A DNA stretch of 21,849 nucleotides from positions 1-21,849 of the IMG/VR virus record IMGVR_UViG_2693429728_000015; one strand, given 5' to 3'. Shown piece after piece: positions 1,927 to 21,396 of this stretch (position 1 is its first letter; every line of letters begins with the position of its first letter). Position numbers and translations under genes: made by a program. A model generated the notes under the pieces. The model ran no database searches. It saw nothing but the letters and a program-made list of their open reading frames with translations, and had not been told where the DNA came from. Source of the stretch: a virus. Taxonomy: Duplodnaviria; Heunggongvirae; Uroviricota; Caudoviricetes.

Positions 1927-1927
1927 T

Positions 1928-3676
1928 ATGACAGTGGCAAATTATAATTCTCTTGTCCAGAAAACTTTCTGCGAAAATGCAATTCGTTCCGTTGTCATGA
2001 TTGATGACGATTTTCTGACGTATTCTGAATCAATCAGGGCGTTGAATAACGAAGTTGATTTAGACTACAACAAAATTGACTCATCTAAACGAGCCGCTAC
2101 TCTTGAGAGCTTTTTTCAATCTAAAAATATGATTTGTGATGTTGACAATGGTTCTGTTAATTTCGATGTGGATCGGATTAGAAAATCAGATCTTATTATT
2201 GTAGATTATCATCTTGATAATAATGCACCTGATAAAACACTTAAACTATTACAAGATTTGAAAGGCTCCGATCATTTAAATATGATTGTAATATATACTA
2301 GAGAGAATTTAGAAACGGTTTGGATGCAGATATCATCGACTCTCAAAGGTGCTCTGGATATCAACAGCTTGATCATTGACTACGATAATGAAGATGTCCA
2401 AAGTTATTGGGAAGACGTTGTATTACCGAACTTAAATGATAATGGTAATAAAGCTCTCACAAGAGATGAAACAATAGCCTATATTAAAGACAGTAAGCCT
2501 TGTAGAAGAATTAAAAGATTAATACATGATGATGCTGTGTTGGAGGATCAAAAGGATAAAAACTTCATTGCAAAAATGATTGCAGAATATGCTGTGTCTA
2601 GAAATGCAATTATTTCTAGCAACACATCTGGCAATGTCATTCGGGGTGATGAAAGCGGAGTAAAATGGATTCAATGTGGTAATATCTTTGTCTCCCTATT
2701 TCATAAGGTTCAAGATGATCATGAAAACGATGGAGATAGGATTTGGCAAACTCTCAATGATTCTCTCATTGAATGGAAACCATCTTATTATCAGTTAATA
2801 AAATCTGAAATTCAGAATGCAATCGAAGCTGAGGCTTTATCTTTTGTAAATCATTTGGCTAACGATCATTACGGTCAAGCTGCGTGGTTAAATGAGATAT
2901 TAAAATCAGACTCGCCTGATATTAGATGTAGAAATATTGACTTTGTATTTGGTAATTTATCAGAAGAGCTTTATCAAAGACTTAAAAATAATAATACGCT
3001 GGATGAATTTATCAAAAGTGTTTTTGATAGCTATTCAAATGAATACGCTAACAGCGGAGTTGCTGCATTGCTCCAATATTGCTCTTCAAAAATGGATCTG
3101 CCATCAAATAATGATACTTATCACGAAATGTATCATGCTTTAAATATGAATTTGTCTTCAAAGAATTTTGAAGATGGTCATATTTCTACTGGCACTATTT
3201 TCTTTGATACAGAGTCGAACAAATGGTATTTATGTGTATCTGCGGCATGTGATTTGGTTCCTACTCAGGGTAACGACCCTCACCATGTAAGATTAAGTCC
3301 GCACAGGCTCATTAAAGTTCTGGAGCTTTTTAACGCCAGTCAGAGTAAAGCATTGCCATTTGCTGAACATTCGAAATATATATATGTAATGCATAAAAAT
3401 CAAAGAAAATATCTCTCTATTTTCGAAGGGGATAAAACGCTTCCTGTTGTTGATTATATGGTGGTGTTGAATCATGGAACAACAGTTGATGGCGAAGAAA
3501 AAAATATTATTTCTGCCGTGTTTTTAAGTAATATGGATGGCAACGTGCAAAATGTTCCTGTCCGACTCAAACTTAAATCTCAACTGAGAACTGGTTATGC
3601 AGAAAGATATCAGGCTATAGCGTCTCAGTATAGCTCAAGGATTGGTGTGGATTATGTATCAATGATGCTACCATAA
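1928..3676 (+). CDS. Receiver (REC)-like N-terminal domain fused to a roughly 430-aa C-terminal domain of unknown function
   Basis: ORF track gives 1910-3676. The ATG at 1928 is preferred because GGAGTGGAG lies 7 nt upstream and it sits 1 nt after the upstream stop (translational coupling). N-terminus has REC-like landmarks: 'VVMIDDDF' (acidic pocket), 'DLIIVDYHL' (putative phospho-acceptor Asp), 'MIVIYT' (Thr) and a following Lys. I do not recognise the C-terminal region. Confidence 0.6.
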   Translation: MTVANYNSLVQKTFCENAIRSVVMIDDDFLTYSESIRALNNEVDLDYNKIDSSKRAATLESFFQSKNMICDVDNGSVNFDVDRIRKSDLIIVDYHLDNNAPDKTLKLLQDLKGSDHLNMIVIYTRENLETVWMQISSTLKGALDINSLIIDYDNEDVQSYWEDVVLPNLNDNGNKALTRDETIAYIKDSKPCRRIKRLIHDDAVLEDQKDKNFIAKMIAEYAVSRNAIISSNTSGNVIRGDESGVKWIQCGNIFVSLFHKVQDDHENDGDRIWQTLNDSLIEWKPSYYQLIKSEIQNAIEAEALSFVNHLANDHYGQAAWLNEILKSDSPDIRCRNIDFVFGNLSEELYQRLKNNNTLDEFIKSVFDSYSNEYANSGVAALLQYCSSKMDLPSNNDTYHEMYHALNMNLSSKNFEDGHISTGTIFFDTESNKWYLCVSAACDLVPTQGNDPHHVRLSPHRLIKVLELFNASQSKALPFAEHSKYIYVMHKNQRKYLSIFEGDKTLPVVDYMVVLNHGTTVDGEEKNIISAVFLSNMDGNVQNVPVRLKLKSQLRTGYAERYQAIASQYSSRIGVDYVSMMLP

Positions 3677-4201: not shown

Positions 4202-5473
4202 TTAGGCTACCAGAGCATTTGATCTTTGAGCTTGAACGTAATCACTCCACCATTGCATCAAACTCTGTCGCTCTATCAGATATTCTGCACGATTGTATGC
4301 TGCGATAATTTCATCTTTTTTCGAGTGGGCAAGCGCTGCCTCAAGAACTTCAGCTCTGAATTTACCAGACTCCTCTGCCGCTGTTCGTGCAATAGAACGC
4401 ATACCGTGAGCTACAAGCTCGCCTCCGAACCCCATTCGGATGATAGCTGCGTTGGCTGTTTGTTCATGCATATGATTAAGAGGCGCTTTTATGCTGGGGA
4501 AAACCCATTCTCTATGCCCACTTATTGATTTCATTAATTCAAGGATGCGCAAAGCTTCTTTACTCAAAGGAACTTTGTGAAGCTTTTTCATTTTCATGAA
4601 ATCAGCAGGAATGTTCCAAATGCTGTTGGTTGTATCAATATCAGACCACCTTGCGCGAACGGCTTCACCCGGACGAACCCATGTCAACAATTGCCATTCA
4701 ATTAGCATACGTGTTTCCAACCGGATTGACGCATTCGTCAAAGATTCCATAAACCTTGGCAATTCGCTTGGGGGAAGGGCAGGCATATTTTGCTTTTTTG
4801 GTTTACTGAATCTTTGACCAAGGTTGTCAGCCGGGTTGAACTCAATAAGTTCTTCAGTAGCTGCCCACCGGAAGATTTCATTCAGACGTGAAATGATACG
4901 GCGTAGAGTTTCCAATACGCCTCGTTGCTCAATAGGATCAAGGTGTTGTTTTAAGAGCTTAGGTCGGATCTCATTGATAGGGACATTACCCAGACCGGGA
5001 AAGACATTTCTCTCTAAGCTGCGCCAGATGTCTGCTGCATGGTCTTGTGAGATACCTGATGTCTTTACCTTCTCATCTAACCATTTCCGCGCTACGGCTT
5101 GGAGAGTGTGCTCAGTAGCACTCTTTAATGCCTTCGCCTTATCGTTGTTATGGATTTGGGGATCAACACCATTTGCCAGAAAGGAGAGATATTCATCACG
5201 TAAGGCTCTGGCTCTTGCAAGGGTAAGGTGAGGATATGTCCCAAGGCTCATTTTGGTTCTTTTCTTGCTCACTGGTACTGCATACCTGAAATACCAATTT
5301 TTCTTGCCTCCTTTCGCCAAAGGAGCGATTCGTAGAATCAGACCATCACCGTCAAACAAGTTGATTTCTTTATCGGCTGGCTTGGTGCTTTTGATTTCAG
5401 TGTCAGTGAGCTTCTTAGCGATTTTTGCCATTTTGGGACCCTCGGTTTTTGGACCCTTCTTAATGGGTCCCAT
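4202..5473 (-). CDS. int: P4-family (IntA/CP4-57-like) tyrosine integrase
   Basis: 423-aa ORF. N-terminus 'MAKIAKKLTDTEIKSTKPADKEINLFDGDGLILRIAPL' is typical of the P4-integrase arm-binding domain; C-terminus has 'LAHSKKDEIIAAYNRAEY' (catalytic-Tyr region). The more likely start is the ATG at 5431 (GAGGG about 9 nt upstream), giving 409 aa. It lies immediately downstream, same strand, of the ssrA 3' fragment. Confidence 0.9.
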   Translation of the reverse strand: MGPIKKGPKTEGPKMAKIAKKLTDTEIKSTKPADKEINLFDGDGLILRIAPLAKGGKKNWYFRYAVPVSKKRTKMSLGTYPHLTLARARALRDEYLSFLANGVDPQIHNNDKAKALKSATEHTLQAVARKWLDEKVKTSGISQDHAADIWRSLERNVFPGLGNVPINEIRPKLLKQHLDPIEQRGVLETLRRIISRLNEIFRWAATEELIEFNPADNLGQRFSKPKKQNMPALPPSELPRFMESLTNASIRLETRMLIEWQLLTWVRPGEAVRARWSDIDTTNSIWNIPADFMKMKKLHKVPLSKEALRILELMKSISGHREWVFPSIKAPLNHMHEQTANAAIIRMGFGGELVAHGMRSIARTAAEESGKFRAEVLEAALAHSKKDEIIAAYNRAEYLIERQSLMQWWSDYVQAQRSNALVA

Positions 5474-5804: not shown

Positions 5805-6572
5805 TTATTGTTTTATTATCTTAACGTGCGCCGTTCCTCCATTGACTTTTTCGAAATCTTGGAACAAGGCAGGGGCATCTTGAGTTACAATATCGTAAAG
5901 TTTTTCTGAAACTGTTCTCATTTCATAGTCACCCTGTATTGCTCCTCTCATTTCGAAGAAGTGTCGAATTGCGCGAGCATTTGCTGTGACGATTATTTTT
6001 GTCTCGGTTGCATTAGGCAATATAGAGCGAGAAGCGCTTCTTAGGGCCCGCATTTTTTCTTTTTTGTTCTCATACGATTGGTTTTCACGGATTTTTTTCA
6101 AGGATTGCTTATAAAAATCCAGACTACTTTCAATATGTTGGCACCATGACTTAAACAATTCTGGGTCATTTTTTACTTCTATAGGGGCTACGAATTCAGC
6201 ATCGGATTCATCATGATACTGTTGGGATAACTGGCTATATGAAAAACCAGCTCTATGCCGAACTAGCTGGTGTGTAAATGCACGAGATACCCCAGTAATT
6301 AAAAAGGTCCAGTTCAAATGTTCTAAGACACTTTCATGCCCTTGAATAATTAAATTGTTGATATATTGACTTGTAGTCCGTGGAGACTGCTTATCCTCTC
6401 CAAAAGACATATAACATAGCCTGCCAGCGGCCTCTACCAGAAGCTCAGCTTCGGTCGCCTGCCCTTTGCGAACCCATTGCAATGATGATGTGTTTAAAAA
6501 ATCATCAAAAACATTACTTTCAAATGAAGGGTGTGATATGCATTTTACTGATAAATCAGAGATTTTTATCAT
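5805..6572 (-). CDS. ThyX-like flavin-dependent thymidylate synthase homologue
   Basis: 255-aa ORF with 'GVSRAFTHQLVRHRAGFSYSQLSQQY', matching the ThyX signature (RHR ... SYSQ.SQ) and its surrounding conserved block. GGGAG lies upstream of the ATG. Starts 2 nt after the stop of the upstream Dcd-like gene (operon). AT-rich. Confidence 0.7.
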   Translation of the reverse strand: MIKISDLSVKCISHPSFESNVFDDFLNTSSLQWVRKGQATEAELLVEAAGRLCYMSFGEDKQSPRTTSQYINNLIIQGHESVLEHLNWTFLITGVSRAFTHQLVRHRAGFSYSQLSQQYHDESDAEFVAPIEVKNDPELFKSWCQHIESSLDFYKQSLKKIRENQSYENKKEKMRALRSASRSILPNATETKIIVTANARAIRHFFEMRGAIQGDYEMRTVSEKLYDIVTQDAPALFQDFEKVNGGTAHVKIIKQ

Positions 6573-6574
6573 TT

Positions 6575-7360
6575 TTACTCCCGTATAGCTTTTGGGGTGC
6601 TTACTTTAGCATCAACCTTTGGTTCGTTTGATTTAGCATTTTTTAGTAATTCAACGGTGCTTTTTAGGCTATTTATTTCATTTTGTTGAACTTTTATTGT
6701 TAATTCAAGATCTTTTGTACTACTGACATTACTGGATACTATTTGAAATAAGAAAGGAATTGCTAGGGTTATCAACGTTAGCATTAAGGCTGCTATCGCA
6801 ATTATAAAGCCAGTTTTTTTCGCAATGATTTTATTGATTTCTTTCGGAAGTCGTTTATCAAGTCCTGCAAAATCCTTTCCCATTCTAGAAAGTTGATCAT
6901 CATCCAATTTATTTACGATTTTTCCTTGGTAACCTTTAGTCGGTATTATTGTTTTAAATAATAACATTCGGGCTACTGCAGAATTTTGTGTCAATGAGAA
7001 TGGTTCTTTTGACATATTTACAAGATATATTGAAATTATGCCATTATATCCAGGGTCAATATGCCCTGGATTCGTCATGATAATTCCATTTTTTGATAGT
7101 GTGTTTCTTGGGAATATTACACCAGCTAAATTTTTTGCAAGTTGGAATTTTTCATTTAACTCTAATATTACAGTTTCCCCTGGCATCAGGATATGGTTGT
7201 TACGTGTTTTTTTATTGTCTTGACAGTCTGGTATATGTATTGTTTTTACAGAGAGATCAATGCTTGCAGATTGAACTTTAAATGTTCCATTTAATACCGT
7301 TAATGGATCAAAAATGTTGCCTCGCTGAATTTCATCATTGATTTCTATTTCAGACAGCAT
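6575..7360 (-). CDS. dCTP-deaminase/dUTPase-fold (Dcd-like) domain fused to a C-terminal transmembrane helix and a Lys-rich tail
   Basis: 261-aa ORF. 'PGHIDPGYNGIISIYLVNMSKEPFSLTQNSAVARMLLF' resembles the Dcd active-site block (HRIDPGWSG...). N-terminal region is also Dcd-like. Residues about 190-215 ('GFIIAIAALMLTLITLAIPFLFQIV') form a predicted TM helix. Starts 26 nt after the int stop. AT-rich. Confidence 0.6.
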   Translation of the reverse strand: MLSEIEINDEIQRGNIFDPLTVLNGTFKVQSASIDLSVKTIHIPDCQDNKKTRNNHILMPGETVILELNEKFQLAKNLAGVIFPRNTLSKNGIIMTNPGHIDPGYNGIISIYLVNMSKEPFSLTQNSAVARMLLFKTIIPTKGYQGKIVNKLDDDQLSRMGKDFAGLDKRLPKEINKIIAKKTGFIIAIAALMLTLITLAIPFLFQIVSSNVSSTKDLELTIKVQQNEINSLKSTVELLKNAKSNEPKVDAKVSTPKAIRE

Positions 7361-7386: not shown

Positions 7387-8400
7387 TTATAAATTAGCCA
7401 GAGGGTTTTTTATTACTGCATCTTCAAGATGCTCTGGGGAAAAATGTGCATAAATCATAGTCATTTTTATATCAGAGTGGCCTAAAATATCTCGTAAAAC
7501 CAAAATATTACCACCATTCATCATAAAATGGCTGGCGAATGTATGGCGCAGAACGTGGGTGCATTGGCCCTCTGGTAACTCAATGTCAGCTCGCTTTACT
7601 GCTCGTTCAAAGGCTTTTCTGCAAGGAGTGAATAACTTCCCTCTGTTCTTAGGGAGTTCGTCATACAGATCCTGAGATATCGGCACGGTACGGTTTTTCT
7701 TGCCCTTAGTCTTGGTATAGGTGATCCGGTATTTCGATAACTGATGGCCCTGCAGATTTTCGGCTTCACTCCAGCGCGCGCCGGTGGCCAGGCATATTTT
7801 TGCAATTAAAAGTAGACTGGGGCTTTGAGAATCAGCACAGGCATCCAGCAGACGTTTAATTTCTTCCGGGGTCAGGAACGCCAGTTCACCCTCAGCAATT
7901 TTAAATGTTGGCAGCCCGGCAAGCGGATTGGGGGCTGACCAGTGGCCCAACTTTTTCAGTGTGCCAAAAACAGATGATAGGTTGCGCTGTTCAAGGTTTA
8001 CAGTGCGGGGCTTAACGGGCGACATAAGCGTGCCCTCTTCATTTCGCACTTCACCTTTTAGCCGCGCTTCTCGGTATTTAGTAAAATCACCGGCTGTCAG
8101 CTCTGAGGCGATGGGATCGCCTAGACCATTACAGATAATTCTAAGTTTCGCCATGAGGCGCTTGGGGTCTGCGAGTGTTTGACCATACAGGGAATACCAC
8201 TGCTCAATTAATTCTGATAGGTGTCGCCGATCTTCCTTTTCCCCCAGCCATGGCTTTTTGTTCACTTCTTCCATTGTGAAGCTTTCAAAAGCAATGGCTT
8301 CGCCTTTCGTAGCAAATTGCTTACGCACGCGCTTGCCATTGCGTCCATGGGGATAGCACTCGCACAACCATTTACCGTTTGGCTGTTTTCTGACAGTCAT
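7387..8400 (-). CDS. int: P2/186-family tyrosine integrase
   Basis: 337-aa ORF. N-terminus 'PNGKWLCECYPHGRNGKRVRKQFATKGEAIAFE' is P2-Int-like; C-terminus 'HVLRHTFASHFMMNGGNILVLRDILGHSDIKMTMIYAHF' carries the R-H-R-Y catalytic region. Starts 2 nt after the cI stop. Confidence 0.9.
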   Translation of the reverse strand: MTVRKQPNGKWLCECYPHGRNGKRVRKQFATKGEAIAFESFTMEEVNKKPWLGEKEDRRHLSELIEQWYSLYGQTLADPKRLMAKLRIICNGLGDPIASELTAGDFTKYREARLKGEVRNEEGTLMSPVKPRTVNLEQRNLSSVFGTLKKLGHWSAPNPLAGLPTFKIAEGELAFLTPEEIKRLLDACADSQSPSLLLIAKICLATGARWSEAENLQGHQLSKYRITYTKTKGKKNRTVPISQDLYDELPKNRGKLFTPCRKAFERAVKRADIELPEGQCTHVLRHTFASHFMMNGGNILVLRDILGHSDIKMTMIYAHFSPEHLEDAVIKNPLANL

Positions 8401-8402
8401 GT

Positions 8403-9035
8403 TTAGATACTCTTTATTACTTTGACTGCACGCCCAATAACTTCCACATCATCAGTAGAGCACTCGAAAGACGCTTCATCTTGATTTACTACAATCTTAT
8501 TGCCGGGAATCCGCATGATTTTTGCAACAATAATCATTCCATCAATATTGATAAGCCAGAATCCATTGCTGACCTGTTTAATTGATTTATCGATGAGATA
8601 ACAATTAGTAGGGGTTTCTAAGAACATCAATTCTTCATAATCTGCAGGTAATATGCTGTGGTCTAGGAAAATCTCTTCATCAATACTGAGTTGTCCATTC
8701 TCCAGGGTTCCTTTAGGAATAGCTGGAGTTATGAGTTTGGATAACGGTTTAATTGCTTGTTTGTTCTCATTATGAGAACTTTTCTCAGGCTCAGCTCCTC
8801 CTTTCATGCTTCCCTGTCCTGTAGCTAACCAAAGCAACGAAACACCGGTTTCTAGTGCGCACTGAATTATCCAGTCAGCAGGAAAGCTGTCACGTAACAC
8901 TCTGTTTGCCATAGTGCTTTTTGAGACATTCAGGTGCTCGCTTAATGCCTGCTTAGTTGTGAATCCATAAGCCTCAAGCAGCCTTCCAATAGCTGCCTTA
9001 CCTCCCGTATCGGAACCCATTCTGATGTTTAACAT
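8403..9035 (-). CDS. cI: CI-type immunity repressor (phage 186 CI-like)
   Basis: 210-aa ORF. N-terminal HTH region '...LEAYGF...CALETGVSLLWLATGQG' resembles 186 CI. Divergent from apl/cII and directly upstream of int, as in 186-like phages. Confidence 0.8.
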   Translation of the reverse strand: MLNIRMGSDTGGKAAIGRLLEAYGFTTKQALSEHLNVSKSTMANRVLRDSFPADWIIQCALETGVSLLWLATGQGSMKGGAEPEKSSHNENKQAIKPLSKLITPAIPKGTLENGQLSIDEEIFLDHSILPADYEELMFLETPTNCYLIDKSIKQVSNGFWLINIDGMIIVAKIMRIPGNKIVVNQDEASFECSTDDVEVIGRAVKVIKSI

Positions 9036-9431: not shown

Positions 9432-9941
9432 ATGTTTGATTACAAGATTTCCAAACATCCGCATTTCGATGAAGCCTGTAGGGCTTTTGCACTGCGCCAC
9501 AACCTGGTGCAACTGGCAGAACGTGCAGGCATGAATGTGCAGATTCTGCGGAACAAGCTGAACCCAGCTCAACCTCATTTATTAACTGCACCAGAAATCT
9601 GGTTGCTTACCGATCTGACTGAAGATTCAACGCTGGTAGATGGTTTTCTGGCTCAGATTCACTGCCTGCCATGTGTACCGATTAATGAGGTGGCAAAAGA
9701 GAAACTGCCACATTACGTCATGAGTGCAACCGCAGAGATCGGGCGTGTCGCGGCAGGTGCGGTTTCTGGCGATGTAAAAACCAGTGCAGGCCGTCGTGAT
9801 GCGATCAGCAGCATTAACTCTGTTACACGACTGATGGCGCTGGCTGCTGTTTCATTGCAGGCCCGTTTACAGGCTAATCCTGCGATGGCGAGTGCGGTTG
9901 ATACCGTGACTGGCCTCGGTGCTTCATTCGGTTTGCTGTGA
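9432..9941 (+). CDS. cII: CII-like lysogeny establishment regulator (phage 186 CII family)
   Basis: 169-aa ORF. '[22 protein letters not shown]...[25 protein letters not shown]' closely matches 186 CII as I recall it. Strong SD (AAGGGGG). Confidence 0.85.
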
Positions 9942-11530: not shown

Positions 11531-11829
11531 CAAGGGCAGTGCGTATCCATCAATTAAAAATTGCACCTAAGTATTTCAACGCTGTGGTTGCAGGTCAAAA
11601 GACGGCTGAACTTCGTAAAGACGATCGTGGCTATAAAGTTGGTGATGTTCTTTCTCTTTGCGAATGGAAGCATGGCGTATTTACGGGTAGGGAATGGGCC
11701 GCTGTTATCTCTCATGTGCTTCCGGTTAATGACGTCATGGCAGTTTCAGAACAATGGGTGATGCTATCAATTCGCCCATTAACCCCATTAGAAGCTTTAG
11801 GATATGTTATTGCAGGAGGTGCTGTATGA
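11527..11829 (+). CDS. ASCH/DUF3850-like (PUA-fold) protein
   Basis: ORF track starts at 11467 inside the previous gene. ATG 11527 gives a 100-aa protein, '[40 protein letters not shown]...', which resembles ASCH/DUF3850. Immediately upstream of the methyltransferase. Confidence 0.55.
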
Positions 11830-12683
11830 GTACCATCCTGAAATGGGCGGGTAATAAAACTGCCATTATGTCCGAACTGAAAAAACATCTTCCTGCTGGC
11901 CCGCGACTGGTTGAACCTTTCGCGGGTTCCTGTGCTGTGATGATGGAGACGGATTACCCCAGCTATCTGGTTGCGGATATTAATCCTGATTTAATCAACC
12001 TCTATAAAAAGGTTGCTGCTGATTGCGAGGCGTTTATATCTCGTGCCAGAGCTTTATTTGAGGAAGCAAACAGGGAGTTGGCTTATTACAACATAAGGCA
12101 GGAGTTTAATTACTCCACTGAAATTACTGATTTCATGAAAGCGGTATATTTCCTGTATCTCAATCGTCATGGTTACCGTGGGTTATGTCGTTATAACAAG
12201 AGCGGGCATTTCAACATTCCATACGGTAATTATAAAAATCCGTATTTCCCTGAAAAAGAAATTCGCGCATTTGCAGAGAAAGCCCAGCGAGCAACGTTTA
12301 TCTGCGCCAGCTTTGATGAAACGCTGGCGATGCTGCAGGTGGGGGATGTGGTGTATTGCGATCCGCCTTATGACGGTACGTTTTCCGGCTATCACACTGA
12401 TGGTTTCACTGAAGATGACCAGTATCACCTGGCATCCGTTCTTGAACATCGGTCATCAGAAGGACATCCGGTCATTGTTTCTAACAGTGACACATCCCTG
12501 ATCCGTTCGCTGTATCGAAATTTTACTCACCACTACATCAAGGCAAAACGCAGCATCGGTGTAGCAGCTGGTGAGAGTAAATCTGCAACAGAAATCATCG
12601 CTGTTTCCGGGCCGCGCTGCTGGGTGGGATTTGATCCTTCGCGTGGCGTGGATAGTTCTGCCGTGTACGGAGTGCGTGCATGA
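11826..12683 (+). CDS. dam: Dam-family N6-adenine DNA methyltransferase
   Basis: ORF track starts at 11754. ATG 11826 has GGAGGTG upstream. N-terminal '[20 protein letters not shown]...EPFAGSCAV' is the AdoMet-binding region; 'CDPPYDG' is the catalytic DPPY motif. Confidence 0.85.
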
Positions 12684-15094
12684 GCCATGCTGATATGAAC
12701 AACTGCAGCGGCTTTAACGAGGTCGCCGCAGCATTCTCATGGAACAGCCCGAAAAAGGCCATTAACCCTTATCTGGACCCGGCGGAAGTTGCGCCGGTTT
12801 CTGCGCTTTCAAACCTGATCACTCTGTACGCTACTGATAACGAGCAGGAACAACTGCGCCGCGAGGCACTGAGTGATCAGGTTTGGGAGCGTTATTTCTT
12901 TAATGAATCCCGTGATCCTGTCCAGCGCGAAATGGAGCAGGATAAGCTCATTAGCCGGGCAAAGTTGGCGCATGAGCAGCAGCGTTTTAACCCGGACATG
13001 GTCATTCTGGCAGACGTTAACGCCCAGCCTTCCCATATCAGCAGGCCGCTGATGCAACGTATTGAATACTTCAGCAGCCTTGGCAGGCCAAAGGCTTATT
13101 CCCGCTATTTGCGTGAGACGATTAAGCCATGTCTGGAACGGCTGGAGCATGTACGCGACAGTCAGCTATCCACTTCTTTTCGCTTTATGGCAAGCCATGA
13201 AGGGCTGGACGGCCTGCTGATTCTGCCTGAAATGAGTCAGGATCAGGTGAAACGCCTGTCCACCCTTGTTGCTGCGCATATGAGCATGTGCCTTGATGCA
13301 GCTTGTGGCGATTTGTATGCCACCGATGACGTTAAGCCAGAAGAAATCCGCAAGACATGGGAAAAGGTGGCAGCAGAAACCCTGCGACTGGATGTCATAC
13401 CGCCTGCGTTTGAGCAACTCCGCCGGAAAAGAAACCGCCGCAAACCTGTGCCCTATGAACTCATTCCGGGTTCGCTGGCGCGTATGCTGTGCGCCGACTG
13501 GTGGTATCGGAAATTATGGAAGATGCGTTGCGAATGGCGGGAAGAGCAGTTGCGTGCTGTCAGCCTGGTCAGCAAAAAAGCATCTCCCTATGTCAGCTAT
13601 GAAGCCGTGATGCATAAACGTGAGCAGCGCCGTAAGTCGCTGGAGTTTTTCCGTTCTCATGAACTGGTGAACGAAGACGGCGACACGCTGAACATGGAGG
13701 ATGTGGTAAACGCCAGCAGCAGCAACCCGGCGCATCGCCGCAATGAGATGATGGCCTGTGTTAAAGGCCTGGAACTTATCGCGGAAATGCGTGGTGACTG
13801 CGCCGTTTTCTACACCATCACCTGTCCGTCACGTTTCCATTCCACGCTAAATAACGGCAGGCCAAACCCGACCTGGACCAACGCGACAGTAAGACAAAGC
13901 AGCGATTATCTGGTCGGCATGTTTGCTGCATTTCGTAAGGCTATGCACAAAGCCGGGTTGCGCTGGTATGGCGTGCGGGTGGCTGAGCCACATCATGACG
14001 GTACAGTTCACTGGCACCTGTTGTGTTTTATGCGCAAAAAAGACCGCCGCGCCATCACTGCATTACTGCGTAAGTTTGCCATCCGTGAAGACCGCGAGGA
14101 GCTGGGCAATAACACGGGGCCGCGCTTTAAGTCTGAGTTGATTAACCCGCGCAAAGGAACGCCGACAAGCTACATCGCGAAATATATCAGTAAGAACATT
14201 GACGGGCGTGGTCTGGCTGGCGAGATCAGCAAGGAAACGGGTAAATCCCTGCGTGATAACGCTGAATACGTGAATGCCTGGGCGTCTCTGCATCGTGTTC
14301 AGCAATTCCGCTTCTTTGGTATTCCGGGGCGTCAGGCTTATCGTGAACTGCGATTGCTGGCTGGTCAGGCGGCAAGGCAGCAGGGTGACAAAAAAGCAGG
14401 TGCGCCGGTACTGGATAACCCACGCCTTGATGCCATCCTGGCTGCTGCTGATGCTGGCTGTTTTGCGACCTACATCATGAAGCAGGGCGGCGTGCTGGTT
14501 CCCCGCAAATATCACCTTATCAGAACAGCTTATGAAATTAACGAAGAGCCGACCGCCTATGGCGATCACGGTATTCGTATTTATGGCATCTGGTCACCCA
14601 TTGCAGAGGGCAAGATCTGCACTCATGCAGTGAAGTGGAAAATGGTTCGTAAGGCCGTTGACGTTCAGGAGGCGGCAGCCGAACAGGGCGCTTGCGCCCC
14701 TTGGACTCGTGGCAATAACTGTCCCCTTGCTGAAAATTTGAACCAACAAGGGAAAGACAAATCAGCTGATGGGGATACCAGAACGGACATTACCCACATG
14801 GATGACAAGGAGTTGCACGATTACCTGCACAGTATGAACAAAAAAGAGCGCCGGGAACTGGCTGCAAGGTTACGCCTGGTGAAACCGAAACGGCGTAGAG
14901 ACTACAAACAGCGAATTACAGACCATCAACGACAGCAGCTCGTCTATGAACTGAAGTCCAGAGGATTTGATGGCAGCGAGAAAGAGGTCGATTTACTCCT
15001 TCGCGGCGGCAGTATTCCGTCAGGAGCAGGCCTGCGTGTCTTCTATCGGAACCAGCGTTTGCAGGAAGATGATAAGTGGCGGAACCTGTATTAA
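12680..15094 (+). CDS. A: P2/186 gene A-type replication initiation endonuclease
   Basis: 804-aa ORF, GC-rich, in the position after the early genes. Size and conserved blocks (for example '[11 protein letters not shown]') are consistent with the rolling-circle initiator A. Start overlaps the dam stop. Confidence 0.8.
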
Positions 15095-15163
15095 TTACGC
15101 GGGTTAACAATTCGTGCTCTTAATAATACCAGGCATATCAGGCTGATGAACGTAAAAAAACGT

Positions 15164-15206
15164 TTTACATCAGTAAGATTATCATATACTGTAAATATAA
15201 ACAGTG
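15164..15206 (+). promoter_or_regulatory. SOS-regulated promoter: TTTACA-17-TACTGT with a LexA box overlapping the -10
   Basis: LexA box TACTGTAAATATAAACAGTG at 15187-15206 (CTGT-N8-ACAG). -35 TTTACA at 15164-15169. It lies upstream of the small ORF and the DinI-like gene. Confidence 0.6.
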
Positions 15207-15247
15207 GTTATCTATACAGTATTGTTTGCGGTGTCATAGGAGGAAAG

Positions 15248-15436
15248 ATGCAGGACTATTTTTTGGAGTCTTTGAAGCTCCAGCGCATTGATTTTTTTCT
15301 TAAGCTTGTAGCGGCTAGTGAGTGTAGTGATGAAGAGAAGGGGCTGGCCCTGCAGTGGGTTTCTGAATTGACTGATGAACTCATGGCAAAAATCAGAAGC
15401 CACGAATACAACCGCTCAATGGATGTCATCAGCTGA
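15248..15436 (+). CDS. Small acidic protein, possibly the N-terminal antirepressor part of a Tum-like module
   Basis: ORF track starts at 15146. ATG 15248 has the strong SD AGGAGGAAAG upstream and gives 62 aa. Downstream of the LexA box and upstream of the DinI-like gene. Confidence 0.45.
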   Translation: MQDYFLESLKLQRIDFFLKLVAASECSDEEKGLALQWVSELTDELMAKIRSHEYNRSMDVIS

Positions 15437-15446
15437 GGTGACTTTT

Positions 15447-15680
15447 ATGCGCATTGAAATAATGATCGATAAAGAGCAGAAGATTAGCCAGTCTACCCTG
15501 GACGCTCTGGAGTCCGAGCTTTACCGCAACCTGCAACCCATCTATCCCAAGACCGCTATCCGCATCCGTAAAGGGTCGGCAAACGGCGTTGAGCTGAGTG
15601 GCTTAAAGCTTGATGAAGACAAAAAGCGGGTGATGGAAATTATGCAACAGGTTTGGGAAGACGACAGCTGGCTGCACTAA
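15447..15680 (+). CDS. DinI-family protein
   Basis: ATG 15447 with GAGGTG 6 nt upstream. 77-aa 'MRIEIMIDKEQ...ALESELYRNLQ...VMEIMQQVWEDDSWLH' resembles E. coli DinI. The phage 186 Tum antirepressor has a DinI-like C-terminal part. Confidence 0.7.
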   Translation: MRIEIMIDKEQKISQSTLDALESELYRNLQPIYPKTAIRIRKGSANGVELSGLKLDEDKKRVMEIMQQVWEDDSWLH

Positions 15681-15798
15681 GGAACGTTCCTGATGTAAGA
15701 ACTTGAATCTGACGTCAGCAAGGTTGAACAACGAGAGTAGCGAGGCGTTAGCCATGGGTAAAAAAGACAGTAATCACCAGATTATTTATCGGGGCTAG

Positions 15799-16014
15799 GT
15801 GCTGGAACGTTTAACCCTTGGCGACTGGGTCTTCTTTCAACGCCCAAAGGAGTGTGGCGGAGGTTTTTGGTTGGGCCGCATCTATGAAGACTGCTTCTGG
15901 CTTGAGCTGGAATTCCCCGTTTCGCTATATGACGGCCTGGGGTTTTTGATGGAAGTCACTAGGGTAGAGCAGAGAAGTGATGAGGTTGACGCGAATTATC
16001 CCCTGTTTGATTAA
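15799..16014 (+). CDS. Hypothetical protein (GTG start, weak)
   Basis: 71-aa ORF with GTG start and no clear SD. May be a remnant. Confidence 0.25.
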   Translation: MLERLTLGDWVFFQRPKECGGGFWLGRIYEDCFWLELEFPVSLYDGLGFLMEVTRVEQRSDEVDANYPLFD

Positions 16015-16033
16015 AAATGTATTAGCTTATAAT
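16006..16033 (+). promoter_or_regulatory. Near-consensus sigma70 promoter (TTGATT-16-TATAAT) upstream of the membrane-protein gene
   Basis: -35 TTGATT at 16006-16011 and -10 TATAAT at 16028-16033, about 30 nt upstream of ATG 16063. Confidence 0.5.
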
Positions 16034-16062
16034 GGAATACTATTTTTGCAGGTGGGGGCGCA

Positions 16063-16674
16063 ATGGATTTAGTCTTTAAAGTTCTGGCTTCGTTGGGTGG
16101 GGTGTCTTTTGTTGCATCTGGCATATTTGTTTGGATCGGGAAAGTTTATTTAGAAAGATATAAGTCGCGGCTAAACAAAGATATTGCTGAATTTCAATCA
16201 CAACTGAGTGCAACTAATGAAAGAATAAAGGCTAAGTTAGACAATTCTGTTTATGTAACGAAAGCGTATTTTGATAAGGAGTTATCAGCATATAGTCTCA
16301 TTTGGAATTCGATGTTTGAAACCAGAGAAAGCGTGCTTAAGCTGAGGCCTGCGCTGGATCATGTTGACCCCAACGAACCATTTGAAGAGAGAAAATTTAG
16401 AAGGTTGAAAGTTTTTTCTGATGCATTTAACACTTTTGTTACAAGTGTTGAATCTAACAAACCGTTCATCTCACCAGAGGTTTATATAATCTTGGACCGT
16501 TTCCGGAAGGAATGCCTTTCAGAGTCAATATCGTTTAAGCATAGCGATCCAGAATTTGACGGGCAAAATTATTGGAAAGAGGCGGAGTTGAACCATACAA
16601 CCATCATCAAGCTTTTTGATGAGACGTGTGATGCAATTCGAGACAGGATGCACACATTAACTGTGGTTACGTAG
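16063..16674 (+). CDS. Membrane-anchored protein (single N-terminal TM helix), unknown function
   Basis: 203-aa ORF. Residues about 5-26 ('FKVLASLGGVSFVASGIFVWIG') are hydrophobic. GGTGGGGG upstream of the ATG. AT-rich. Confidence 0.65.
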   Translation: MDLVFKVLASLGGVSFVASGIFVWIGKVYLERYKSRLNKDIAEFQSQLSATNERIKAKLDNSVYVTKAYFDKELSAYSLIWNSMFETRESVLKLRPALDHVDPNEPFEERKFRRLKVFSDAFNTFVTSVESNKPFISPEVYIILDRFRKECLSESISFKHSDPEFDGQNYWKEAELNHTTIIKLFDETCDAIRDRMHTLTVVT

Positions 16675-16766
16675 GTTTCCAAAAAGTCTCGATGCCCGCT
16701 TTGGAGATTGTGCATGTCTATGCCGCATGAATCCGCATGATCGTTTGAGGATCGTTTTAGCTGAGG

Positions 16767-16792
16767 CCCGCCAGGAGTGGCGGGATTTTGCT
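16767..16792 (+). terminator. Hairpin plus T-rich tract (possible terminator or attenuator) between the membrane-protein and KAP genes
   Basis: CCCGCCA-ggag-TGGCGGG (16767-16784) followed by ATTTTGCTT, inside a GC-rich spacer that contrasts with the AT-rich flanking genes. Confidence 0.35.
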
Positions 16793-16918
16793 TATGTCAT
16801 GCAGGCGCATGAAAACCGCTACATAAAGCGGGCAGGCGTGGCGGGGATACGAGCGCGCGCTCATTACTTTTATAATTCTAGGGTTATAATACGGGGCTGT
16901 CTTTCTAGGAGAAAACAC

Positions 16919-18571
16919 ATGTCCTTAGAGTTTATCAAAGAACAGTTGTCAGATTTTATCTCATCTACAGAACCAGAAGTAATGGCTATACAGGGTGAAT
17001 GGGGAATTGGTAAAACCTATACTTGGAATACGTTCCTAAAAGATAATAAAGATAAGGTTGCATTTAATAGATATAGTTATGTCTCTCTTTTTGGTATAAA
17101 TTCACTAGATTCTTTAAAGTATTCTATTTTTGAGAATGCAATTACAAAGGAATATATTGGAAATAAACCTGATTTGGAGACAGCAACAACAAACGCAAGT
17201 GGACTTTTTGAATCATTTTCTCGAAAAGCAGCAGGTTTGTTAAAAGAAGTTCCTGTTGTAAAAAACTTCTCTACGACACTTGAAGCAATGTCATTTCTGA
17301 CCGTTTCTAAAATGATTGTAGTAATAGATGACTTAGAAAGGCGTGGCAAAAATTTAGATGTTAAAGATGTTTTAGGGCTAGTATCTCTATTAAAAGAGCA
17401 GAAGGATTGTAAGGTGGTTCTATTGCTTAACAATGGCACAGCTAGTATGGAGGATTATTCTACTTATAAAGAAAAGGTCATTGATAGAGATATCACTTAC
17501 AATCCAACACCAGAAGAATGCGCAGATATAGCCTATAAAGGTGATTCTCATGTTTATAACTTGTTAAGTAAATATTCCATTTCTTTAGGTATCAAGAATA
17601 TTCGAATCTTAAAAAAGATAGAACGTTTTTTCGTGTCCTTAATACCAAATATTATAGGTGATGTTGAGACAATTTCAAATGAAGTTGCGCATTCATTAAC
17701 TCTGTATTGTTGGAGCCATTACGGATTTTCTCCAGAGGGAGATGTGCCATCACTAGAATATATTAGGGGAGTGAGGAATATATATACTTATAATGACAAG
17801 GAAGAAGGCCATGAGAAAATCTGGCTTAATACCTTGCTTAAATATGGATATAGAAAAACGAATGATCTTGATGAGGTTCTTATTGATATGGTTAGATATG
17901 GCTATCTTGATAAGAGCAGTTTCCAAAGACAAATAAGCCTAAGGAATGAGGAGATTACGCGTGATAATAAACGAGGTTCCTTATCTGAGGCATGGCAGTT
18001 CTTTCATAATTCATTTGATGACAATCAAAATCAGGTTGTTGACAAGCTATATCAAGCGGTGGTTGATGGGATGAAGTATGTGACTCCAAGTGATTTAGAT
18101 AATGTTGTCGGACTATATAGGGATTTCGGAGAGAATGCTAAGGCGAGTGAATTGATTGAACAGTTTATTAATTATGGTAACGATGCTCTAAAGGAATATG
18201 TTCAATCTATTTATGTGAATGTTCATCCCGTAAGAGATACTGAGTTGTTGTCAAAAATTCAAGCCTATTCTAAGATTATAAATATTGATGGTTCAATATA
18301 TGATGTTCTTAAGAAATTATCAGGTCAGAATGGTTGGTCTGATAGACATGAGGAAATATTGGATGCTGCTTCAGTAGATGACTACTATCAATTATTTAAA
18401 AATGTCATTCTTGATGGTGGTGATTCAATAATAGCTACGGCGCTTAAATTCGGAAATTTTAGTAATGGTTCTGATAGAATGAATCGTATAGGGAAAAAGG
18501 CAAGGGATGCCTTGATAAGAATTGGAGATGAATCGGCGATTAATAAAATGCGTGTAAGGCGATTTTTGTGA
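16919..18571 (+). CDS. KAP-family P-loop NTPase
   Basis: ORF track starts at 16727. ATG 16919 is preferred because AGGAGAAAA lies upstream and two TATAAT boxes lie at 16871-16890. Walker A 'QGEWGIGKTYTW' (GxWGxGK[ST], KAP-type); Walker B 'MIVVIDDLERRGK'. No TM helix seen within it. AT-rich. Confidence 0.75.
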   Translation: MSLEFIKEQLSDFISSTEPEVMAIQGEWGIGKTYTWNTFLKDNKDKVAFNRYSYVSLFGINSLDSLKYSIFENAITKEYIGNKPDLETATTNASGLFESFSRKAAGLLKEVPVVKNFSTTLEAMSFLTVSKMIVVIDDLERRGKNLDVKDVLGLVSLLKEQKDCKVVLLLNNGTASMEDYSTYKEKVIDRDITYNPTPEECADIAYKGDSHVYNLLSKYSISLGIKNIRILKKIERFFVSLIPNIIGDVETISNEVAHSLTLYCWSHYGFSPEGDVPSLEYIRGVRNIYTYNDKEEGHEKIWLNTLLKYGYRKTNDLDEVLIDMVRYGYLDKSSFQRQISLRNEEITRDNKRGSLSEAWQFFHNSFDDNQNQVVDKLYQAVVDGMKYVTPSDLDNVVGLYRDFGENAKASELIEQFINYGNDALKEYVQSIYVNVHPVRDTELLSKIQAYSKIINIDGSIYDVLKKLSGQNGWSDRHEEILDAASVDDYYQLFKNVILDGGDSIIATALKFGNFSNGSDRMNRIGKKARDALIRIGDESAINKMRVRRFL

Positions 18572-18578
18572 TTTTTAT

Positions 18579-18600
18579 AGGGGTGATTAACCCCTTTTTA
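18579..18600. terminator. Bidirectional rho-independent terminator between the convergent KAP and Q genes
   Basis: AGGGGT-gatta-ACCCCT hairpin (18579-18595) flanked by a T-tract (18596-18599) and, on the other side, an A/T tract. Confidence 0.6.
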
Positions 18601-18601
18601 T

Positions 18602-19630
18602 CTAATTTAATGAGTAATCATTAAATGCTATGATTTTTTCATTTAGCCAAGTATTAATTTCTATAAGCCTTTTTTGTAACGGAATTAATTCATTTCGGAC
18701 AAAGACTTTACTAGCCTTTTCCACATCCCCAAACCCCCCAACATTATTCGGCATTATCCCCATCATTTGCGGCGGCACGCGGTGTGCCGCCATCATGTCG
18801 TCCCGGCTCACGTTCTTGATATTCAAAAACTCATCCTTCGCTGCGACCTCTGACAACGGGATAATCTGAAGCCCGTCCTTTTTGCCGTTAGGCGAGTACA
18901 TAAACAGGTTGCGGAAGTTGCCCGGACCTTTGGCGCTTTTCATCGCGTTGCGGAGGTTGTTCACATCCTCTTGGTTTTGCGCAGCATCGGTCATATACAT
19001 GATGAAGCCTGCATGGCTGCCGTTAATGTAATACTTACGGCGGAACAACGTGGCGGACTCGTTGAGCAGAGCTGACGGAATGGCAGAAAGATAACCGGGC
19101 AGGCCGTAGATCTCCTGGTTGATATCCGGTTCCATCAGATGAAAGATGCTGCCTTTCGTGAACTGATACGGCTGCGTAGTCATGCCGTATTGCACAAACC
19201 AGTAGGTATCCAGGTCTAACCCGCGTCGGGTGTATTTTGCCAGCGCAGGTTCAAGGGCGATAACTTCACCGAAGCGGTTCGTGCGTTTCTCCAGGTAAGC
19301 GTTACCAAATACCAGATAGTCCTGCACAAAACGTGAAAAAGCCTGCTGGCTGAGAAGCGGGTGAGGGATGTAGGTACTGGTCAGAATGTTGCATTTCACC
19401 GCAATTGGTGAACTGTGATGCACGGCAGCGCGGAAGGTTCGCGCCAGTCCGTCAAAACTCACTGGCGGCTCATACCAGCGATCTGTCTGTACGCATTCTA
19501 CATAGTCCAGCAGTTCGCGGCGGTCCAGAACAGGAACGGGATCGCCAAAGCTGAATGCTTCGGCTGAAGTCTGGCTTTTGTGCTGAATCTGGTTCGTCGA
19601 CACAGCGCGGTTCTTCTTACTCTTTCCCAT
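18602..19630 (-). CDS. Q: P2 gpQ-type portal protein
   Basis: ORF track starts at TTG 19633; ATG at 19630 is preferred and overlaps the P stop by 1 nt. 'VLDRRELLDYVECVQTDRWYEPPVSFDGLARTFRAAVHHSSP...GPGNFRNLFMYSPNGKKDGLQIIPLSEVAAKDEF' matches P2 Q as I recall it. Confidence 0.85.
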   Translation of the reverse strand: MGKSKKNRAVSTNQIQHKSQTSAEAFSFGDPVPVLDRRELLDYVECVQTDRWYEPPVSFDGLARTFRAAVHHSSPIAVKCNILTSTYIPHPLLSQQAFSRFVQDYLVFGNAYLEKRTNRFGEVIALEPALAKYTRRGLDLDTYWFVQYGMTTQPYQFTKGSIFHLMEPDINQEIYGLPGYLSAIPSALLNESATLFRRKYYINGSHAGFIMYMTDAAQNQEDVNNLRNAMKSAKGPGNFRNLFMYSPNGKKDGLQIIPLSEVAAKDEFLNIKNVSRDDMMAAHRVPPQMMGIMPNNVGGFGDVEKASKVFVRNELIPLQKRLIEINTWLNEKIIAFNDYSLN

Positions 19631-21396
19631 CAAAAAATCTCCACAATATTGCTGGTATTGGCGGACTCGCCCTGCAGCGGTTCGTTAAACAGTGCGTGCA
19701 TGGTTGCCCAGGCCAGATCGGCATGGCTGGCTTCTTCGCTGCGGCTGGCTTCATAGGTCGGGCGGTTGCCGCTGGCGGTGGTGGCGCGACGGATTGCCAT
19801 AAATGACTGCGCTATGTCGGTGTGTCCGGCGTCAAACTCCAGACGGCGGTGACTGATAATGTCGTAGGCCTTGAGTACCAGGGCATTTTTAACGTTGGGG
19901 TTGTAGACAAACTCCCGGACGGCAGGAAAAAACGCTTTCACGTTCTCGTAAACCCCGTGACCGACGCCGGTTGAGTCGATACCGATGTATGTCACGTTGT
20001 ACTGTTCAGTCAGTTTTTTGATGGCGTCAGCCTGGGCGCGGAAGTCCATCCCGCGCCACTGGTGACGCTCAAGAATGCGGAACTTACCGCCCGGCACGGC
20101 TGGCGGTGCCACCACCACGCATCCGGCGCTGTCGCCGTTCTGCGTACCTTTTGCCGGGTCATAACCGATCCACACTTCGCGCCAGCCAAACGGGCGCAGC
20201 GCCAGTGCATGAAAGTCGGTCCAGACTTCCCAGCTGTCCACCATGCACGCCTGTAGTTCGCTGAGCGGGAACACGGACGCGAGATCGTCCACAAACTCGC
20301 ACATCAGCAGGTTCTGGTATTCGTCCGGGCTGTATTCCATGCGCAACTGGTCAAGGTCGAACAGGTTACAGCCACTGCGCACCGCATCTTCCACGGTGAC
20401 TATCTGGCGGTATTGCCCGTCAGCGCACAGCAGGCCGGGGGCCAGATTGCTGTGGGACAGATCAATGTCCACCTTGTCGGCTTTGTTGCGTCCACGGTTG
20501 AACAGCGCACCGGACCAGAACGGATAAGCACTGTGGGTCAGGCTGGATGGTGTGGAAAAATAGGTCTGCCGCCATTTCTTGTGAATAGCCATACCGGAAG
20601 CCACTTTGCGTAGCTCCTGAAATTTCGGTATCCAGAAATATTCATCCAGATACAGGTTGCCGTGATAACTCTGGGCCGTGCGGGCATTGGTGCCGAGGAA
20701 GTAAAGCGTGGCCCCGTTAGGAAGCACCATCGGATCGCCTTTCAGTTCCACATCCACTTCTTTGGCGAAGTCGATGATGTACTGCTTAAAGACGTGGGCC
20801 TGTGCCTTACTGGCGGAAAGGAAAATCTGGTTACGTCCGGTAAGCAGGGCGTCAATCAGGGCTTCACGGGCAAAGTAAAAGGTCGCGCCGATCTGGCGTG
20901 ACTTCAGCAGGTTGCGGATGCGGTTGGTTTTTCCGGCTTCCCACCAGTGGCGCTGGTAGTTGAACATGGAGGAATGGAAGATTTCTTCCAGCTTCTCAAT
21001 CTGTTCATCGGTGAAGACATTCTTTTCCGGCTGACGGCGCGGGCCTTTGTTGCGGTTGGCGACGTTAGGGTTTAAGTCAGCTTCGTTGCCGCCATTGTTA
21101 AACTTGCCGATCCGCGCGTGGCGCTCAGACTGGCGCGCCAGCAGGTCAATCTCTTTGAAATCTTTCCCTTCTTTGTGCTCCTTCATAATGAGCTGGCAGT
21201 AGCGTGCGGCGGTGGTGAGCTGCATCTGATCCAGCGGCCCATAGTCACCCCACTTGTCGCGTTTTTTCCAGCTGTGAACGGTTGCAACTTTCTCGCCCAG
21301 CATTTCAGCAATGCGGGCGACGCGGTATCCCTGAAAGTACAGCAGCATGGCCTGCCGACGGGGATCGAGATCTGCGGGTGTCAGTGTGGTGTTCAT
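19630..21396 (-). CDS. P: P2 gpP-type terminase ATPase (large) subunit
   Basis: 588-aa ORF, GC-rich. Size and position (upstream of Q, divergent from O) match P2 P. Confidence 0.85.
   Translation of the reverse strand: MNTTLTPADLDPRRQAMLLYFQGYRVARIAEMLGEKVATVHSWKKRDKWGDYGPLDQMQLTTAARYCQLIMKEHKEGKDFKEIDLLARQSERHARIGKFNNGGNEADLNPNVANRNKGPRRQPEKNVFTDEQIEKLEEIFHSSMFNYQRHWWEAGKTNRIRNLLKSRQIGATFYFAREALIDALLTGRNQIFLSASKAQAHVFKQYIIDFAKEVDVELKGDPMVLPNGATLYFLGTNARTAQSYHGNLYLDEYFWIPKFQELRKVASGMAIHKKWRQTYFSTPSSLTHSAYPFWSGALFNRGRNKADKVDIDLSHSNLAPGLLCADGQYRQIVTVEDAVRSGCNLFDLDQLRMEYSPDEYQNLLMCEFVDDLASVFPLSELQACMVDSWEVWTDFHALALRPFGWREVWIGYDPAKGTQNGDSAGCVVVAPPAVPGGKFRILERHQWRGMDFRAQADAIKKLTEQYNVTYIGIDSTGVGHGVYENVKAFFPAVREFVYNPNVKNALVLKAYDIISHRRLEFDAGHTDIAQSFMAIRRATTASGNRPTYEASRSEEASHADLAWATMHALFNEPLQGESANTSNIVEIF

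Follow-up and report, generated by a model that had tools for sequence, protein, structure and literature searches.

We examined two AT-rich genes that lie between replication gene A and portal gene Q of a 186/P2-type prophage contained in a DNA stretch of 21,849 nucleotides (IMG/VR record IMGVR_UViG_2693429728_000015; from here: the window). They encode a membrane-anchored protein of 203 amino acids (aa) and a KAP-type P-loop NTPase of 550 aa. We report that the A-to-Q interval consists of two adjacent, exchangeable slots around a conserved linker of 155 bp and that the two genes reside in different slots. It is likely that they represent two independent cargo modules, the second being a single-gene KAP-type NTPase module for which we infer an anti-phage role. 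Slot 1 would then carry an unrelated cassette that travels with many different slot-2 systems.

Two exchangeable slots around a backbone linker

The position between genes A and Q that was given in a first-pass annotation of the window is borne out by the flanking genes. The left flank is the replication endonuclease gpA (12680-15094, plus strand), an 804-aa open reading frame (ORF) that carries this name in RefSeq in syntenic loci and matches Pfam Phage_GPA in homologous loci. The variable part is preceded by a DinI-like (Tum-type) gene (15447-15680, plus strand; Pfam DinI, 85 bits) as the last backbone gene, and the right flank is portal gene Q (18602-19633, minus strand). The pair is indeed AT-rich, with a GC content of 38.6% in the 203-aa gene and 33.8% in the NTPase gene compared to 50-53% in the flanking phage genes. 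The P2-type A-to-Q region is a defence hotspot (Rousset 2022, PMC9122126), and in related prophages the interval from gpA/DinI to the portal gene is occupied by different defence systems.

The limits of the slots were set by the breakpoints in pairwise blastn comparisons with related prophage loci. Slot 1 (15753-16709, plus strand; 957 bp, 41.5% GC) contains a cassette of orf71 and the 203-aa gene. It is followed by the linker (16710-16864, plus strand; 155 bp, 56.8% GC), which is common to loci carrying the NTPase, a DUF4145 protein or a retron, and by slot 2 with the NTPase module (16865-18634, plus strand; 33.5% GC). In locus L002 (E. coli UTME-8) the match to the window stops after 15752 and resumes at 16710, hence exactly 15753-16709 is missing. 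There, the NTPase module stands directly after DinI with slot 1 empty, and the NTPase is 100% identical to that of the window. The slot-1 cassette is swapped for other contents in L003, L004, L005 and L095. Three further loci (L006, L007 and L008) match continuously from 12000 to 16860-16864, diverge from there until 18635-18666 and carry a DUF4145 protein or retron St85 where the window has the NTPase. Because the 155 bp are kept in L002 without slot 1 as well as in L006, L007 and L008 without the NTPase, they are part of the backbone. The final ~10-20 codons of the portal gene move together with the slot-2 cargo in the pairwise comparisons.

The linker was found in 1263 of 5426 complete E. 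coli genomes (~1459 linker-bearing loci), mostly unannotated. It harbours a conserved GC-rich, terminator-like hairpin (16767-16784) followed by a T-run (ATTTTG), as well as repeated GCATGA motifs, and its invariant 3' end (GAGCGCGCGC) falls exactly at the cargo junction. It probably serves as a terminator and recombination anchor. A functional small ORF across the linker (phrog_28685) is unlikely in view of in-frame stops in several related loci, and an Rfam scan of window positions 15000-19000 yielded zero matches.

The occupants of slot 2 in related prophages comprise retron St85, a DUF4145 protein with a weak match to PD-T7-4, OLD-like AAA_15/TOPRIM, AIPR, AAA_21 with RloB, Schlafen/HATPase, a CoiA nuclease, AbiU (1e-107), PDC-S59, PDC-S33-like and DitB-like proteins, AAA with HNH, a PIN protein and ParA with SIR2. 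Slot 2 is a defence slot, and the NTPase is one occupant among many.

Slot 1 is similarly variable upstream of the NTPase. It can be empty, hold orf71 and the 203-aa gene, a pair of 72-aa and 280-aa genes or a pair of 66-aa and 260-aa genes, or it can encode a single large protein. The latter is an 883-aa HsdR_N-AAA-S1 protein (L005 1267-3918) in most NTPase-bearing E. coli genomes (a 99.7%-identity group) and an LA2681-family HEPN protein (L095 4929-6506) in strain AF5. Since these two proteins occupy it, slot 1 constitutes an additional, independent slot for defence cargo. The alternative cassettes (L003 2468-3528; L004 2401-3387; L014 3710-4770) share a layout of a small soluble protein of 66-72 aa and a protein of 260-280 aa with three N-terminal transmembrane (TM) helices. 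The 72+280-aa cassette occurs in 52 E. coli genomes with varied defence cargo downstream, including AAA+HNH, PIN, PDC-S59 and ParA+SIR2. Both the 72+280-aa and the 66+260-aa cassettes may be functional analogues of the cassette of orf71 and the 203-aa gene.

The NTPase gene and its product

The first-pass annotation had assigned 614 aa to the NTPase, the length of the ORF 16727-18571. This is a read-through artefact. The true start is the ATG at 16919, which gives a gene of 16919-18571 (plus strand) for a protein of 550 aa. The sequence AGGAG is located at 16907-16911, 7 nt upstream of this ATG, whereas the ATG at 16727 lacks a comparable site. The homologues (>1000) are 550-560 aa long and align from the ATG-16919 methionine with the consensus MSxEVIKEQI, and the length annotated in RefSeq is mostly 550 aa. 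The initial 46 codons of the longer ORF (16727-16864) are linker sequence, which is also found upstream of unrelated cargo and is interrupted by in-frame stops in related loci, including L002 with its identical NTPase. Slot 2 further contains two TATAAT hexamers (16871 and 16885) as well as a terminator-like hairpin (18579-18595). With -10 hexamers, a Shine-Dalgarno sequence, a coding sequence and a terminator of its own, the NTPase module is predicted to be self-contained.

The assignment to the KAP family survived a profile search, in which profile positions 6-224 of 293 of Pfam KAP_NTPase (PF07693) matched with 29.7 bits (E 4.9e-7), above the gathering score of 20, and the other P-loop Pfam models all stayed under their cut-offs (NB-ARC at 14.3 vs 23.5 bits). 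The Walker A motif GEWGIGKT (16994-17017, residues 26-33) and the Walker B motif VVIDDLER (17318-17341, residues 134-141) are present as proposed and fit the patterns GxxGxGKT and hhhhDDxxR, respectively. An invariant core of G26, G29, G31, K32, T33, D137, D138, E140, R141 and N171, the last being an asparagine at the sensor-1 position, was found across 42 homologues. These sequences are conserved over their full length, with 57% mean column identity at pairwise identities down to 41%.

The prediction of a soluble NTPase was upheld as well. There is no TM segment in the protein, the maximum 19-residue Kyte-Doolittle mean of 1.35 being reached at the Walker B strand. TM helices inserted in the NTPase domain are the classical KAP hallmark as reported by Aravind et al. 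(2004); the window NTPase does not have them. Its AlphaFold2 model (mean predicted local distance difference test score, pLDDT, 82.8) consists of an N-terminal alpha/beta P-loop domain with a helical lid and an all-helical, conserved C-terminal half of ~300 aa. A low-pLDDT amphipathic insert at residues 85-119 (~35 residues) would correspond to the position of the TM hairpin of canonical KAP proteins. The fold is ORC/Cdc6/Apaf-1/NLR/RdrA-like, with ORC as the top Foldseek match, and it is the N-terminal domain that resembles ORC/Cdc6 and STAND proteins. We recognised no nuclease, pore, NADase or other effector domain in the protein, and comparison of its profile to the sequences of solved structures gave nothing below E 0.1.

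The family spans several phyla, with >1000 matches and loci from Gammaproteobacteria, Acidobacteriota, Cyanobacteria and others. In E. coli it is present in 131 of the 5426 complete genomes (about 2.4%).

The slot-1 cassette and the 203-aa protein

The 203-aa protein (16063-16674, plus strand; phrog_26391) contains one N-terminal hydrophobic helix at residues 3-25 (Kyte-Doolittle 19-residue mean 2.0), in agreement with both the first-pass annotation and the AlphaFold2 model. Because a K/R-rich stretch follows the helix, the bulk of the protein should be cytoplasmic according to the positive-inside rule. In the model (pLDDT 82) the TM helix continues into a long helix that is followed by a four-helix bundle, which is probably located in the cytoplasm. 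Fold searches with this model returned only generic four-helix-bundle matches (Tar ligand-binding domain, FAT domain) at E >=0.007, and the family matches no Pfam or PADLOC family.

A full HMMER scan assigned 919 clusters at 50% identity to this family, nearly all of them with lengths of 190-230 aa and end-to-end matches. Conserved residues are E73, R95-P96, P134-F135, E154 and R193/R195; wide alignments contain too few conserved stretches for pattern scans. A HEPN-like reading (R193...H197) was rejected for its wrong spacing and because H197 is not conserved. RefSeq calls the protein 'valyl-tRNA synthetase' in many genomes (WP_016237789.1, WP_020218871.1). This name looks spurious, the only support found being a sub-threshold match of the coiled-coil helix to Val_tRNA-synt_C (16.7 vs 25.9 bits).

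The carriers of the family are P2-type prophages, a P4-like element, low-GC phages and small islands. The gene occurs in 52 of the 5426 complete E. coli genomes, and a word-indexed search yielded 17 matches, whose named sources were all Enterobacteriaceae. Relatives were found alone near the integrase of the P4-like element, beside smpB and in low-GC phage contigs that appear Firmicutes-like by composition. On three metagenome contigs (L101 2121-3316, L102 and L103) the distant homologue P0143 has the same downstream neighbour, a 171-aa gene at a distance of 69 nt, with a SLATT_5 protein nearby on one of the contigs, which hints that some branches of the family have a fixed partner.

The 203-aa gene is accompanied by orf71 (15799-16014, plus strand; phrog_2100, 1.4e-28) in all 20 P2-type IMG/VR viral contigs that carry it. 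In the window orf71 is the downstream part of an interrupted 86-aa gene, which begins with the ATG at 15754 and is cut at codon 15 by a TAG (15796-15798) with a GTG directly after it. The TAG allele is present in 8 of the 20 related viral contigs, and LF82/Cartapus has CAG and the uninterrupted 86-aa version. The near-consensus promoter that had been postulated in front of the 203-aa gene is only in part what it was taken for. The site TTGATT - 15 nt - TATAAT (16007-16033, plus strand) has a perfect -10 element (16028-16033), but its -35 element (16007-16012) matches 4 of 6 positions and the site was not listed by a consensus promoter scan because of its 15-nt spacer.

The cassette probably fulfils an independent function, which may be exclusion or defence at the membrane. 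For the 203-aa protein itself, a role in membrane-level exclusion or in modulation would be a guess.

The two genes assort independently

A two-gene variant with the membrane protein as partner of the NTPase had been considered in the first-pass annotation. In such an obligate system, the 203-aa protein would act in trans as the anchor or effector, a part that TM inserts play in canonical KAP proteins. In favour of such a system, the AT-rich genes are direct neighbours with a common orientation, the pair recurs in at least five other loci, and the 203-aa gene adjoins three divergent NTPase alleles (100%, ~77% and 51% identity). A trans membrane partner was pursued since the first NTPase loci examined had TM proteins encoded immediately upstream, namely the 280-aa and 260-aa proteins (3 TM), a 309-aa protein in Vibrio (2 TM) and proteins of 103-113 aa in Pseudomonas (2-3 TM).

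The distribution of the genes argues against this. Only in one E. coli genome, strain 504237, do both stand side by side, which is one of the 131 genomes with the NTPase and one of the 52 with the 203-aa gene. Likewise, the NTPase is present in 2 of the 20 P2-type IMG/VR contigs with the 203-aa gene. Random assortment over the ~1459 linker-bearing loci leads to an expectation of ~4.7 genomes with both. Given that 115 of the 131 E. coli NTPase copies are >=99% identical, i.e. given clonal sampling, one genome against ~4.7 shows only an absence of enrichment. A lack of co-occurrence elsewhere had been named in the first-pass annotation as refuting its reading, and on this point the outcome is mixed. 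The pair does recur, but no more frequently than predicted by chance assortment, and the two-gene reading fails in substance.

Neighbours were sampled at 39 NTPase loci with one genome per species, of which 36 were analysed. Most genes upstream of the NTPase lack a TM segment, with an upstream TM protein in the minority of the 36 loci, and an all-against-all clustering of the neighbours of these loci revealed no recurring family beyond P2 core genes and no neighbour conserved across phyla. The NTPase also occurs with an empty slot 1, and where both genes are present they are divided by the terminator-like hairpin of the linker, with separate expression signals for the NTPase. At similar search depth, the NTPase family was found across several phyla (>1000 matches), while the 17 word-indexed matches of the 203-aa protein have named sources in Enterobacteriaceae only. 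Moreover, the 203-aa and the 280-aa cassettes each precede many unrelated systems. For the cassette of orf71 and the 203-aa gene these are at least 12 other cargo types, among them retron St85, DUF4145, OLD-like, AIPR, AAA_21+RloB, Schlafen/HATPase, CoiA, AbiU, PDC-S59, PDC-S33-like and DitB-like. In view of the missing pattern in the 36 loci and the position of the 280-aa cassette upstream of unrelated systems, we rejected a membrane partner in trans. An obligate two-gene system is largely refuted by the distribution and appears highly improbable. As judged from the genomic arrangement, the two genes assort as independent slots, although occasional functional interplay, which would speak against full independence, may exist in view of the three allele pairings.

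A looser relation is also conceivable, in which slot-1 cassettes are generic helpers that modulate, potentiate or give immunity to whatever defence system follows in slot 2. Three slot-1 cassettes are built alike, from a small soluble protein and an N-terminally anchored membrane protein, these cassettes are always found immediately upstream of defence cargo, and synergy with neighbouring systems has been documented for tmn (10.1101/2022.08.21.504612). However, slot 1 is empty in some loci and filled by defence-like single proteins (HsdR_N-AAA-S1 or LA2681 HEPN) in others, the 203-aa family also exists alone in the P4-like element, beside smpB and in low-GC phage contigs, and a terminator-like hairpin divides the slots. 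We regard facultative cooperation of this kind as quite unlikely and favour two independent modules.

Relation of the NTPase to known anti-phage systems

The NTPase was compared to PADLOC-DB 2.0, with matches read at E up to 1. This database includes models for Tiamat, tmn, PifA and QatABCD, none of which matched the NTPase within this limit; a link to Tiamat, suggested with some hesitation in the first-pass annotation, thus found no support. The only matches were the single-gene candidate PDC-S49 (E 4e-27) and, weakly, PDC-S20. The 93-bit match to PDC-S49 covers residues 6-428 of 550 and profile positions 9-440 of 624. Distant members of the NTPase family match PDC-S49 at 1e-22 to 1e-29, and both have a single-gene organisation. 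The NTPase family is probably a sister group of PDC-S49 and not its seed family. A literature search on PDC-S49 found nothing.

A second relative is Reve (pFD425), a single-gene defence system from P4-like satellite hotspots of E. coli (NAR 2026, PMC13586616; bioRxiv 10.64898/2026.02.27.708500) that lowers the plating of Drexlerviridae by 10^-2 to 10^-6 (PMC13586616). We used the sequence translated from the construct in Dataset E1 of the preprint (586 aa, compared to 550 aa for the NTPase). Reve is a single-gene system without TM segments as well (maximum hydropathy 1.2), and its Walker A motif NGEWGVGKT (residues 25-33) is at the same position as that of the NTPase, with IIDDLER as Walker B motif. 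The NTPase domains of the two proteins are homologous, with 26% identity over residues 21-243 (BLASTP E 1e-12) and 47 bits for Reve against the profile of the NTPase family (positions 8-287), and Reve matches PDC-S49 too (E 2.5e-11). The annotation of Reve in the preprint, with ORC as top Foldseek match and KAP and AAA_22 by HHpred (bioRxiv 10.64898/2026.02.27.708500), parallels that of the NTPase, for which we obtained ORC and KAP/AAA_22 as well. Reve resides in the P4 hotspot and the NTPase in the P2 A-to-Q hotspot, hence both are located within the P2/P4 phage-satellite pair. The alignments indicate that the NTPase is a relative of Reve, not its orthologue.

The window NTPase shares the KAP_NTPase domain, the Walker A motif and a DDxxR-type Walker B motif with the canonical defence KAP NTPases tmn, PifA of the F plasmid, EF_KAP and QatA. 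EF_KAP has been described as an NTPase with a C-terminal region of unknown function, and the same architecture is seen here. In contrast, tmn (Gao 2020; 10.1101/2022.08.21.504612) and EF_KAP (PLoS Biol 2026, PMC13552941) are described with TM helices, one or two of them inside the NTPase domain, and are membrane-anchored by description, unlike the TM-less window NTPase. Compared to the STAND and ORC/Cdc6 switch ATPases (Apaf-1, NLRs, Avs, RADAR RdrA), the NTPase reaches no STAND Pfam threshold and lacks both repeat-type sensor domains and an N-terminal effector domain. By its sequence it is best placed in the known class of single-gene, membrane-free KAP-type ATPases. Of the readings offered in the first-pass annotation, single-gene KAP-type defence fits best with the match to PDC-S49 and the homology to Reve.

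We consider it reasonably probable that the NTPase is an anti-phage protein that acts alone. By analogy to Reve and the STAND/ORC-type switch ATPases, it might function as a sensor-switch. The conserved helical C-terminal half would recognise a phage cue or product, nucleotide binding and hydrolysis at the Walker A and B motifs would drive a conformational or oligomeric change (assembly or remodelling), and this change would block infection. Each single step of this scheme is considerably less certain than the anti-phage role as such.

Several points weigh against this assignment. The match to PDC-S49 is moderate, with the last ~120 residues of the NTPase and the C-terminus of the profile unaligned, and PDC-S49 is itself a predicted candidate. 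The similarity to Reve is confined to the N-terminal 270 residues, the C-terminal halves being not detectably alike. We found no experiment on the window NTPase or any close homologue in the literature. Furthermore, 121 neighbours of non-prophage NTPase homologues, scanned with PADLOC and Pfam, gave a mixed picture of defence, integrase, transposase and housekeeping genes, which we use only qualitatively because there is no background for comparison.

The NTPase could instead serve in replication or partition control or in lysogenic conversion, or be selfish cargo without a phenotype. The nearest folds are indeed ORC/Cdc6 initiators, an effector domain is not recognisable and many chromosomal homologues are located among housekeeping genes. 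On the other side, slot 2 of the sister prophages holds almost exclusively known or candidate defence systems (retron St85, OLD-like, AbiU, the PD-T7-4-like DUF4145, PDC-S59), and the NTPase is similar to PDC-S49 and to the validated Reve. In addition, tmn, PifA and EF_KAP are KAP NTPases with documented anti-phage activity (10.1101/2022.08.21.504612, PMC13552941), and the NTPase is dispensable for the phage because most related prophages do not have it. Roles other than anti-phage defence thus seem unlikely, and a single-gene anti-phage module in slot 2 is the preferred interpretation.

Other features of the window

The gene order of the 186/P2-type prophage starts with the integrase (7387-8400, minus strand) and the CI repressor (8403-9035, minus strand), followed by CII (9432-9941) and a Dam methylase (11754-12683). 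A 62-aa phrog_698 gene (15248-15436) precedes the DinI-like gene, and in syntenic loci RefSeq annotates genes of 77 aa and 62 aa at the positions of the DinI-like and phrog_698 genes. The terminase gene is located at 19630-21396 (minus strand).

Two further AT-rich gene pairs are present in the window. An overlapping pair at 208-3676 (31-37% GC) encodes a 572-aa protein with HATPase_c and HEF_HK domains and a 588-aa protein with Response_reg_2 (PF19192). It adjoins a P4-type integrase (4202-5473, minus strand), has no PADLOC match and resembles a two-component-like conflict system that is located on an island of its own. The second pair (5805-7360, minus strand; ~31% GC) encodes ThyX (Thy1) and a dCTP-deaminase/dUTPase-like protein. 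It directly adjoins the prophage integrase, also without a PADLOC match, and possibly represents nucleotide-pool cargo carried at the prophage's int end.

Conclusions

The A-to-Q hotspot of 186-type prophages is resolved here into two slots around a 155-bp linker, which is useful for the automatic delimiting of cargo. To list this locus as a two-gene 'split KAP' system would be a misclassification. As to slot 1, one might speculate that the 203-aa family and the 72+280-aa and 66+260-aa cassettes form a new class of modules that are anchored in the membrane, exclude phages or modulate defence, and precede exchangeable defence cargo, which we regard as doubtful at present. As to slot 2, a widespread family of ~550-aa NTPases is tied to Reve and PDC-S49. 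Together, the three would outline a TM-less KAP-type class of single-gene defence systems that is carried by P2 phages and P4 satellites.

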